A stretch of DNA of 64,000 nt from a virus: positions 21,487-85,486 of the IMG/VR virus record IMGVR_UViG_3300032224_000679; one strand, written 5' to 3'. Under the pieces are notes generated by a model. It was given only the letters and a program-made list of their open reading frames with translations, did no database searches and had not been told where the DNA came from. Within the stretch, counting starts at the first letter, position 1; each line of letters begins with the position of its first letter. The position numbers and the translations under genes were made by a program. Positions 59,778 through 60,959 of the stretch are shown here, piece after piece.

Positions 59778-59806
59778 TTGACACAAATTGCAATAGACTA
59801 TATAAT
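59778..59806 (+). promoter_or_regulatory. Consensus sigma70 promoter at the head of the tRNA island
   Basis: TTGACA-17 nt-TATAAT. Confidence 0.85.
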
Positions 59807-59817
59807 AGACACATGTT

Positions 59818-59894
59818 GCGCTTGTAGCTCAGTTGGTTAGAGCAGTGGACTCATAATCCATTGGTCGCGGGTTCAAGTCCCTCCGAGCGCACCA
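59818..59894 (+). tRNA. tRNA with CAU anticodon (Ile2-like, or elongator Met)
   Basis: Cloverleaf, loop CTCATAA, encoded CCA; body resembles bacterial Ile2. Confidence 0.9.
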
Positions 59895-59901
59895 AGAATT
59901 T

Positions 59902-59987
59902 GCCAGAGTGGTGGAATGGTATACACAGCAGACTTAAAATCTGCCGCCCGCAAGGGCATACGGGTTCGAGTCCCGTCTCTGGCACCA
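59902..59987 (+). tRNA. tRNA-Leu(UAA)
   Basis: Loop CTTAAAA, long variable arm, CCA. Confidence 0.95.
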
Positions 59988-60032: not shown

Positions 60033-60061
60033 TTGACAAGAAAGACTAAATAACTTACAAT
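60033..60061 (+). promoter_or_regulatory. Sigma70 promoter of the leader-peptide transcript
   Basis: TTGACA-17 nt-TACAAT; the spacer also contains TAAATA. Confidence 0.8.
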
Positions 60062-60071
60062 AGAAACTGTT

Positions 60072-60203
60072 ATGAAAATACAAAGATCCTTACATTCGTT
60101 TATTTGCATAGCCAAACAGGCAGGCGTTATGCCCGCTTATTGGTCAGCGATTAATCTAAGTAATGATCGCACACCAGAGGAATCCGGGGTCCGGGAAGGA
60201 TAA
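60072..60203 (+). CDS. Putative attenuator leader peptide (43 aa)
   Basis: MKIQRSLHSFICIAKQAGVMPAYWSAINLSNDRTPEESGVREG; ATG lies 10 nt after the -10 box; the 3' codons overlap the antiterminator strand. Confidence 0.65.
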   Translation: MKIQRSLHSFICIAKQAGVMPAYWSAINLSNDRTPEESGVREG

Positions 60204-60230
60204 CAAGTACAAAAATACTTTAACTTCTAA

Positions 60231-60265
60231 GGACCCCAGGCATAAACACCCTGGGGTTTTTGTTT
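60231..60265 (+). terminator. Intrinsic terminator with a competing antiterminator
   Basis: accccagg/cctggggt stem plus TTTTTGTTT; its 5' arm ggacccc is also complementary to ggggtcc at 60186-60192. Confidence 0.85.
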
Positions 60266-60280
60266 ATGTAATGAGGAAAT

Positions 60281-60439
60281 ATGAGAATAGGTAATAACAA
60301 TAGACAACATGAGTTTATTCGACAGCATACGCTAACACAGGAACAACGGCAACGTTTGATCCAAGATAAGTTAGAACGTGCTAGGCAAATTGCTCAAGCA
60401 GTTGTAAAGCGTGAGGTGGCTCTTCAAAGTCGTCGATGA
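60281..60439 (+). CDS. Small basic helical protein (52 aa) immediately downstream of the attenuator
   Basis: GAGGA RBS; MRIGNNNRQHEFIRQHTLTQEQRQRLIQDKLERARQIAQAVVKREVALQSRR. Confidence 0.6.
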   Translation: MRIGNNNRQHEFIRQHTLTQEQRQRLIQDKLERARQIAQAVVKREVALQSRR

Positions 60440-60456
60440 CCGCAAAGTGTGAATAT

Positions 60457-60688
60457 GTGGAAACGAGGTCCACGTCCCGAACTTAAAACATGGGACAAAC
60501 GGGCGGACAGGATACATGAACGTGTGGCGAAAACGCACTTAGTAAGACTCCTGGGTAGGGTACTAACCCTATCATATCCTGTGGCAACACAGGGTATTCT
60601 AAAATGTATCAGATGACCAATACTACTTGCTCTCTTGACGAGTTCGGAGCCTCTTGTGTACACAAGCCCTGGTGCGTTTTAGAATACC
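60457..60688 (+). ncRNA. Putative structured ncRNA of unknown class
   Basis: Series of hairpins plus a 20-bp stem 60593-60612/60669-60688 containing G-U pairs. Confidence 0.5.
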
Positions 60689-60696
60689 AAATATAC

Positions 60697-60725
60697 TTGA
60701 CTGTCAACGAGTTATAGTATATAAT
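60697..60725 (+). promoter_or_regulatory. Sigma70 promoter
   Basis: TTGACT-17 nt-TATAAT. Confidence 0.75.
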
Positions 60726-60743: not shown

Positions 60744-60959
60744 ATGAAACATCCTCACGTTATGATTGATACAGACAAATGTGTTACTAACATTGGTAAC
60801 AGATTTGAATTAATTCTTGTTGCCAGTATTAGAGCAAGAGAACTTAGTAGAAAAACTCATACAGCAAAGGTTGTTACCCATAGTAAATCTATTGTGGCAA
60901 CACTGCAAGAAATTGAGGAAGGCCATATTGGTCGAGAGTACTTGAAAAAAGTTAGGTAA
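60744..60959 (+). CDS. rpoZ: RNA polymerase omega subunit homologue
   Basis: IGNRFELILVASIRAREL...K.IV.TL.EI..G.IG.E.LKKV; start taken as ATG 60744. Confidence 0.85.
   Translation: MKHPHVMIDTDKCVTNIGNRFELILVASIRARELSRKTHTAKVVTHSKSIVATLQEIEEGHIGREYLKKVR

Follow-up and report, generated by a model that had tools for sequence, protein, structure and literature searches.

The 64,000-nucleotide (nt) stretch of DNA analyzed here, referred to as the window, is the final 64 kb of an 85-kb IMG/VR virus contig (IMGVR_UViG_3300032224_000679) from an uncultured giant freshwater phage. CheckV places the completeness of the contig at 24%, so the phage genome should span several hundred kb. An island of transfer RNA (tRNA) genes and non-coding RNAs extends from 59818 to the contig end, and embedded in it, between a tRNA-Leu gene ending at 59987 and an open reading frame (ORF) of 52 amino acids, lies a compact element (60033-60265) in which a short ORF stands between a promoter and two competing RNA hairpins. 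An earlier reading of the window, made by a model from the letters alone (the sequence-only reading), had proposed that this element is a leader-peptide attenuator responsive to every amino acid. Its components are as follows.

60033-60061, plus strand: sigma70-type promoter, with TTGACA at 60033-60038, a 17-nt spacer, and TACAAT at 60056-60061 (11 of 12 consensus matches).
60072-60203, plus strand: leader ORF of 43 codons, with ATG at 60072, an internal Met at residue 20, and a TAA stop codon at 60201-60203.
60141-60176, plus strand: hairpin inside the ORF, a candidate pause or timing element, formed by UGGU..GCGAUUA and UGAUCGC..ACCA over the S-A-I..N-D-R-T-P codons; its role is putative.
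60184-60240, plus strand: antiterminator, a three-helix stem-loop of -22.6 to -22.7 kcal/mol, located by folding and comparison.
60229-60265, plus strand: intrinsic terminator, with the 5′ arm AAGGACCCCAGG at 60229-60240, a loop at 60241-60249, the 3′ arm and U-tract CCUGGGGUUUUU at 60250-60261, and then GUUU.

The 20th different amino acid of the leader peptide, MKIQRSLHSFICIAKQAGVMPAYWSAINLSNDRTPEESGVREG, appears at residue 36. The ORF is written with 36 distinct codons, among them four Ala and four Ser codons, three each for Arg and Gly, and two each for Gln and Glu; by comparison, 42 random codons yield 26.4 ± 2.3 distinct codons. A recount of the window sequence bore out the ORF length, the point of completion, and the codon count given in the sequence-only reading. 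The simulation of chance completion that it had suggested took its amino-acid frequencies from the long ORFs of the window and put the probability at ∼0.001 for a peptide of 43 residues and ∼0.00015 for one of 36. Among the 71 six-frame ORFs of 41-57 amino acids in the window, only the leader and one other contain all 20 amino acids. The leader has no runs of a single codon of the kind found in classical attenuators; the copies of any one amino acid number from about one to a few.

Two sets of relatives were used for comparison. Relatives were fetched from IMG/VR with the upstream 409-amino-acid protein and two short DNA patterns, which gave a set of 39 loci comprising the window and 38 further distinct homologous loci on contigs of up to 364 kb. 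A profile of the peptide was also searched against 1.84 billion cluster representatives (50% identity clusters), returning 161 proteins at E ≤ 0.001 and 50 at E ≤ 1e-10, nearly all of 41-57 amino acids; the 146 usable protein-cluster representatives form a second set that is largely independent of the 39 loci. Judged by these sequences, the leader peptides make up a large, diverse, and unannotated family.

All 39 loci keep the ATG and a frame that stays open for 41-57 codons, and the frame is likewise open in all 146 representatives, in agreement with the expectation that the ORF would be conserved in related phages while its peptide diverged. The N-terminal third of the peptide varies freely among homologues, yet the frame is never broken, and conserved residues carry synonymous changes, including a conserved Ser that switches between TCN and AGT codons. 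This pattern of change indicates that the leader ORF is truly coding.

Completeness of the amino-acid set is also a property of the family. All 20 amino acids are present in 35 of the 39 loci, whereas a tree simulation averaged 11.5-15.2 complete tips and did not exceed 28 in any of 1500 runs. In this simulation the conserved columns were fixed, the root was given 20 of 20 amino acids, and the variable sites of the family itself supplied the equilibrium frequencies, a conservative choice. The representatives behave similarly, with 106 of 146 containing 20 amino acids and a further 34 containing 19, against 0.5 complete peptides expected from the window composition and 6.9 from the pooled composition of the family (maximum 17 in 2000 runs). 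Cys, which accounts for 0.5% of phage residues, is present as a single copy in 33 of the 39 leaders and is spread over 9 alignment columns; His is spread over 12 columns, and an internal Met is found in 37 leaders. Ala averages 2.9 of ∼47 residues in the representatives, and the leaders are not Ala-enriched. The neighboring small-ORF family, despite its greater length of 51-65 amino acids, contains 14-19 different amino acids and never reaches 20. These comparisons argue that selection maintains the full 20-amino-acid set.

The position at which the set is completed can be compared with the layout of the RNA. Under the attenuator model, the 5′ arm of the antiterminator is freed only by stalls that lie upstream of it, so that all 20 amino acids would be expected to occur before this arm. 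In 32 of the 35 complete leaders the 20th amino acid is reached 3-21 nt before GGGGUCC (6 nt in the window), and the 5-12 tail codons supply no needed amino acid. Among the 106 complete representatives, 89 keep at least 8 residues after completion, compared with a mean of 28 and a maximum of 47 when residue order is shuffled, a comparison in which the sequences are not independent trials because the fixed position of a conserved N-D-R-T-P-E block explains part of the early completion. The evidence at the level of codons is less clear. Codon diversity exceeds a null based on phage codon bias in 38 of the 39 leaders (mean z +1.96), and this part of the diversity claim in the sequence-only reading stood; measured against a null of uniform synonymous codon use, the mean z is +0.65, an excess so small that it is suggestive only, and does not establish that isoacceptors, as opposed to amino acids, are sampled.

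The 3′ end of the leader ORF takes part in the first of two alternative folds. In the antiterminator, helix P1 pairs CCGGGGUCC (60184-60192) with GGACCCC.GG (60231-60240), helix P2 pairs GGAAG (60194-60198) with CUUCU (60224-60228), and P3 is a hairpin at 60205-60220; the stop codon sits between P2 and P3. The terminator, which occurs as a single copy in the window, folds with -16.7 to -18.5 kcal/mol. Both structures use 60229-60240, making them mutually exclusive, and the proposed pairing of the ORF's 3′ end with the terminator 5′ arm was thereby confirmed by folding at these coordinates.

Both folds are conserved among the 39 loci, as is the relationship between them. The terminator is the consensus structure chosen by RNAalifold and is 98.9% paired in the alignment, with 2 compensatory pairs, and the corresponding figures for the P1 core are 98.2% and 3. 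The double changes in P1 comprise an outer pair that passes from G-C to A-U in six sequences and two further pairs that pass from C-G to U-A, and this compensatory signal is greater than that of all shuffles and all slid registers. P2, in forms such as GGAG/CUCC, GGAAG/CUUCU, UGGAG/CUUCA, and others, is found together with a P3 hairpin of unrelated sequence in all 39 per-sequence folds. Predicted energies are -20 to -29 kcal/mol for the antiterminator and -14 to -17.5 kcal/mol for the terminator, the antiterminator being the more stable in every sequence. The stop codon lies inside the stem-loop in all 39; it begins 14-18 nt after P1 in 34 of them, and 18-31 nt before the P1 3′ strand. GGGGUCC, the P1 5′ strand, is kept in three different reading frames, giving peptides that end in G-V, G-S, or R-V tails, so the constraint at this site is on the RNA. 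The pairing is therefore conserved in relatives despite divergence of the peptide, as had been anticipated.

Downstream of the terminator lie the sequences whose transcription would be controlled, together with a second promoter.

60281-60439, plus strand: 52-amino-acid ORF, the first cargo, with its own Shine-Dalgarno sequence; homologues of 51-65 amino acids occur in about three-quarters of relatives.
60440-60692, plus strand: conserved structured RNA of ∼180-250 nt, the second cargo.
60697-60725, plus strand: next sigma70 promoter, which also feeds a gene for an omega-like protein (60744-60959) and the tRNA array (from 60967).

Homologues of the 52-amino-acid ORF share the motif ..T.EQ..KLIQDK[LF]ERA..; searches with the ORF gave no match in Pfam and only weak matches in PHROG. 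The structured RNA was found in 26 of 28 relatives inspected (for example at L024:1764-1944 and L052:1908-2096), and 21 of its 25 predicted pairs are kept in some sequence after a change on both sides. It is characterized by a 5′ AGUGUG.. closing helix, a hairpin loop AACGNGR, GGGCGG..GGAUG, and a stem formed by GUAUUAAAG and CUUUAAUAC, and it belongs to no family in Rfam. In seven relatives (L025, L036, L024, L049, L066, L070, and L037) this RNA starts ∼10-15 nt past the U-tract, which leaves no room for a promoter; there it can be made only by read-through, which argues that the terminator is conditional. Same-strand tRNA genes follow in 30 of 31 relatives mapped, the first of them 217-965 nt past the terminator. 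At the locus L052, the leader is followed by 31 tRNAs that together serve all 20 amino acids and can read every codon of the leader. Because the promoter at 60697 also serves the omega-like gene and the tRNAs, the direct cargo in the window consists of the 52-amino-acid ORF and the RNA at 60440-60692, plus a regulated contribution to the array. Of the further promoters that the sequence-only reading had described as feeding the island, the one at 60697 was recovered, and no sigma70-like site was listed at 61977-62097 at the scan threshold.

Taken together, the element is probably a ribosome-mediated leader-peptide transcription attenuator that senses a shortage of any charged tRNA. Polymerase would start at the strong promoter, and a ribosome would translate the 43-codon ORF close behind it. 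With smooth decoding, the ribosome at the stop codon, inside the antiterminator stem-loop, would keep that stem-loop open, so that the terminator arms could pair and transcription would end at ∼60262. A lag at any of the first ∼36 codons, where a charged tRNA is scarce or damaged, or a failure of ribosome loading, would allow the more stable antiterminator to form first. By taking up the terminator 5′ arm, it would permit read-through into the 52-amino-acid gene, the structured RNA, and the tRNA array. Each sequence-level prediction put to the relatives (coding, 20 of 20 amino acids, completion, covariation, stop position, and cargo) supports this reading, and the aligned loci point directly to a coding ORF, selection for 20 amino acids, two exclusive conserved helices, a particular placement of the stop codon, and a cargo.

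Masked folding gives a rough picture of how a ribosome could shift the balance between the two structures. Free RNA is predicted to adopt the antiterminator in 31 of the 39 sequences, and stalls at codons 12, 20, and 30 leave the antiterminator in 30, 32, and 27 of them, respectively. With a ribosome at the stop codon, the terminator is predicted in 26 and the antiterminator core stays paired in 12, for which so simple a model neither proves nor disproves a switch, as it is a crude equilibrium calculation that ignores kinetics and the fact that a helix cannot close around a ribosome. The window sequence itself matches the model's prediction in all five states.

The promoter end of the element is conserved as well. 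The sigma70 promoter just 5′ of the ORF, part of the original claim, was recovered both by reading of the sequence and by a promoter scan, and a strong sigma70 promoter occupies the same place in all relatives. In the window the -10 element ends 10 nt before the ATG, so that, from the inferred start site, the 5′ untranslated region (UTR) is probably 3-6 nt long. Three promoter arrangements are found among the relatives, with a -10 element that ends 6-10 nt before the ATG giving a leaderless or near-leaderless mRNA. Another group (for example L025, L042, L052, and L060) has a ∼55-nt 5′ UTR with a 5′ hairpin and AAGGA. In this group the hairpin is small and covarying (ACGUUA-GARA-UAACGU, ACACU-GUAAAA-AGUGU, and others) and is followed by UUUAAGGA 11-16 nt before the ATG. 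Just 5′ of the leader, a perfect consensus promoter (TTGACA, 17 nt, TATAAT) in 59778-59987 drives tRNA-Met and tRNA-Leu; a terminator is absent between this unit and the leader promoter, so some leader transcripts may begin at the upstream promoter.

Several observations weigh against the attenuator reading. The 5′ UTR of the window's group, probably 3-6 nt, carries no Shine-Dalgarno sequence, so that initiation is only assumed to be efficient. Between one and three amino acids are missing from 4 of the 39 leaders and from 40 of the 146 representatives, Cys being the one most frequently absent. The hairpin at 60141-60176, a candidate for the pause element that coupling would need, has 90.8% of its cells paired among the 39 sequences with weak covariation. 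A strong promoter at 60697 also drives the tRNAs in the window and in many relatives, so the attenuator is not the sole control of tRNA expression. Translation, the efficiency of termination, coupling, pausing, and the response, in both direction and size, are predictions from DNA sequence. RNA-library contigs of relatives (85-99% alike) do cover the leader in four metatranscriptome runs from three studies, and single contigs span the terminator into the downstream region (60124-60363, 60174-60381, 60148-60298, and 60215-60537; the contigs were collected at likeness of at least 85% only, and the gaps before 59782 and after ∼60640 therefore carry no meaning). Such contigs show only that the sequence is joined in RNA libraries; they give no information on RNA ends, strand, or level, and libraries of this kind may contain DNA.

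A further point of this kind concerns the core of the peptide. The motif A-K/Q-x-x-G-F-M-P-x-Y-W-S ... N-D-R-T-P-E and its codons are strongly conserved, with GCC, GGC, UUU, CCC, UAU, AAU, GAU, ACA, CCA, and GAG near-invariant, and the conserved codons (60100-60180 and homologues) include some that are rare in the phage, GCC, CCC, and GAG making up 16%, 12%, and 17% of their synonymous sets. For the single-copy residues W, Y, F, and D and the internal M, the completeness requirement alone would freeze positions. A rule of each amino acid once leaves the conservation of core codons partly unexplained and suggests an additional constraint, such as RNA structure, pausing, an effect of the nascent peptide, or a function of the peptide itself.

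Two candidates bear on pausing within the leader. The hairpin inside the ORF was rejected as a proven pause element because its covariation is too weak, and a 4-base-pair GCCC:GGGU helix is an alternative candidate for a pause or anti-antiterminator pairing. The two conserved Pro residues of the core always differ in codon, one being CCC and the other CCA.

Some of these features would also fit a switch that reports ribosome availability or general coupling of transcription and translation, as affected by host shut-off, few free ribosomes, or polymerase speed, and not individual charged tRNAs. Since the ribosome-free default fold is the antiterminator, any failure of loading or pace would produce read-through, and the near-leaderless transcripts of some groups agree with such a role. 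Nothing in a sensor of this type would call for 20 amino acids, for a set completed upstream of the antiterminator arm, or for a turnover in which a single Cys and a single His persist, and such a sensor is regarded as an unlikely explanation of the element.

The strong conservation of the core motif, together with the prediction of the ORF as a gene by gene callers in many metagenomes, could instead mean that the ORF encodes a small protein with its own function, in which case the stem-loop and terminator would simply end and stabilize a short mRNA, and the competing pairing would be non-regulatory. Leader peptides acting in trans have a precedent in peTrpL, which reportedly has such a function. 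Yet no reason is known why a folded protein of 45 amino acids should require the whole set of 20, with Cys and His free to move; GGGGUCC persists in three reading frames, with covarying antiterminator pairing; and the structured RNA lies right behind the terminator without a promoter, so that read-through must occur. A stand-alone protein function is for these reasons somewhat less plausible still than a general coupling sensor. That the element is mainly an RNA gene, its terminated leader of ∼195 nt serving as a small RNA or processing substrate with an incidental ORF, would suit the high synonymous-site conservation in the core, a fold z-score of -3.4, and a location amid many non-coding RNAs, but is very improbable given an ORF that is open throughout both sets, a variable N-terminal third that keeps the frame, Ser codon-family switches, and a 20-of-20 statistic that is meaningful only for a translated sequence.

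The proposed pan-amino-acid attenuator can be set beside regulatory systems already described. The leader peptide matches no family or database protein outside its own phage group. It has no family match in Pfam or PHROGs, a word-indexed protein search with it returned zero matches, and the GenBank phage collection, searched at both the DNA and the protein level with the region, the upstream 409-amino-acid protein, and the 52-amino-acid ORF, also yielded no match. None of the Rfam covariance models, including those for T-boxes, riboswitches, and known leaders, covers 60033-60265 or its homologues at E ≤ 1. A scan of species-genome contigs with the terminator pattern found six loci, of which five are ordinary terminators behind ordinary genes and one, L074, has the leader.

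The locus L074 (L074:5640-5926, on JBBAKF010000113.1) is the sole leader carrier in the species-genome collection, and lies on a 6.2-kb contig binned with a Polynucleobacter metagenome-assembled genome. Its leader has 48 amino acids, includes all 20, and is joined to the same switch. The assignment to Polynucleobacter could be a lead to the host or a binning artefact.

Other RNAs and proteins of the island were recorded in the course of this comparison. The omega-like RNA polymerase protein encoded at 60744-60959 (PF01192 Rpb6/omega, E 8.6e-12) lies between the attenuator cargo and tRNA-Asn, and the promoter at 60697, a consensus one, is its own. An ARAGORN 'tmRNA*' (transfer-messenger RNA) call at 62754-63313, a permuted and probably spurious one, was rejected as cargo, as it runs across the ordinary tRNA-Tyr and tRNA-Asp and finds no more than a weak echo in Rfam. 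A weak extra tRNA-like Rfam match at 63179-63259 (34.8 bits) is without an ARAGORN call. In the 364-kb relative IMGVR_UViG_3300021963_000021, a GOLLD RNA (RF02032, 190.8 bits, cut by the locus end) is found at L025:1-458 on the minus strand, at the far end of a leader-headed same-strand tRNA array.

Classical enterobacterial attenuators such as trpL, hisL, leuL, thrL, ilvL, and pheL use runs of one or a few cognate codons to control the matching biosynthetic genes, and to our knowledge leader-peptide attenuation has always concerned one or a few amino acids and biosynthetic genes. In common with them, the phage element has a promoter and a short ORF, a pair of competing hairpins (antiterminator and terminator), and a stop codon positioned so that the terminating ribosome would block the antiterminator. 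It differs in containing each amino acid about once and in having RNA genes as cargo. Classical leaders also possess a 1:2 pause or anti-antiterminator hairpin that leads to termination when the leader is untranslated, whereas the untranslated default of the phage leader would be read-through. In antibiotic-sensing leaders (ermC-type, PA5471.1/armZ, vmlR, and mef/msr), drug-bound ribosomes stall at specific peptide motifs; there too, a stall in a short leader ORF selects between alternative RNA folds and so sets downstream expression, but the phage leader gives no sign of a drug-dependent arrest motif. T-box riboswitches act independently of translation, each through direct binding of one specific uncharged tRNA. 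They likewise report the charging state of tRNA through a choice between terminator and antiterminator, and no Rfam T-box match was found here.

The closest precedent is the upstream ORF (uORF) of mycobacterial whiB7 (wblC), which precedes an antiterminator and a Rho-independent terminator, with smooth translation leading to termination and stalling leading to read-through (PMC10274678). Removal of Trp or His codons from this uORF abolishes sensing of the corresponding starvation, and its diverse composition allows many amino-acid and tRNA defects to be sensed, as is proposed for the phage leader (PMC10274678). The whiB7 uORF is Ala-enriched, variable in length, and incomplete in most species, being without Cys in M. 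smegmatis and without several amino acids in M. tuberculosis (PMC10274678). The phage leader, which is unrelated in sequence, is compact, with 20 amino acids in ∼36 codons, appears to be selected for completeness, and is phage-encoded; its cargo is a structured RNA and a tRNA array, whereas that of whiB7 is a bacterial transcription factor. A search of full-text literature found no other leader peptide with all amino acids and no attenuation of phage tRNA arrays. The architecture of ribosome-mediated attenuation and the sensing of general translation stress by a uORF, as in whiB7, are already known. What is new here is a compact whole-alphabet leader, present across >160 sequence clusters and wired to a terminator switch that stands before a phage tRNA array for 20 amino acids.

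If the attenuator reading is correct, this would be the first case in which the expression of viral tRNA genes is regulated by a general sensor of decoding capacity, and it would explain how giant phages fit tRNA supply to need. The element would also offer a natural, portable 200-nt reporter of any tRNA shortage, for use in synthetic biology and in the study of tRNA-targeting defenses. It would likewise mark the conserved structured RNA behind the terminator as a product that the phage wants when translation falters. A more tentative possibility is that the leader acts as a counter-defense alarm, one that samples every amino acid, and elongator Met, within ∼36 codons. It may thereby detect when anticodon nucleases or other tRNA-targeting defenses cleave or deplete any of the host tRNAs, as well as the tRNA decay that goes with host shut-off, and may answer with the phage's complete tRNA set, the structured RNA, and the small protein. 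Were this so, detection and response would form one feedback loop, making the phage autonomous in controlling its decoding capacity.

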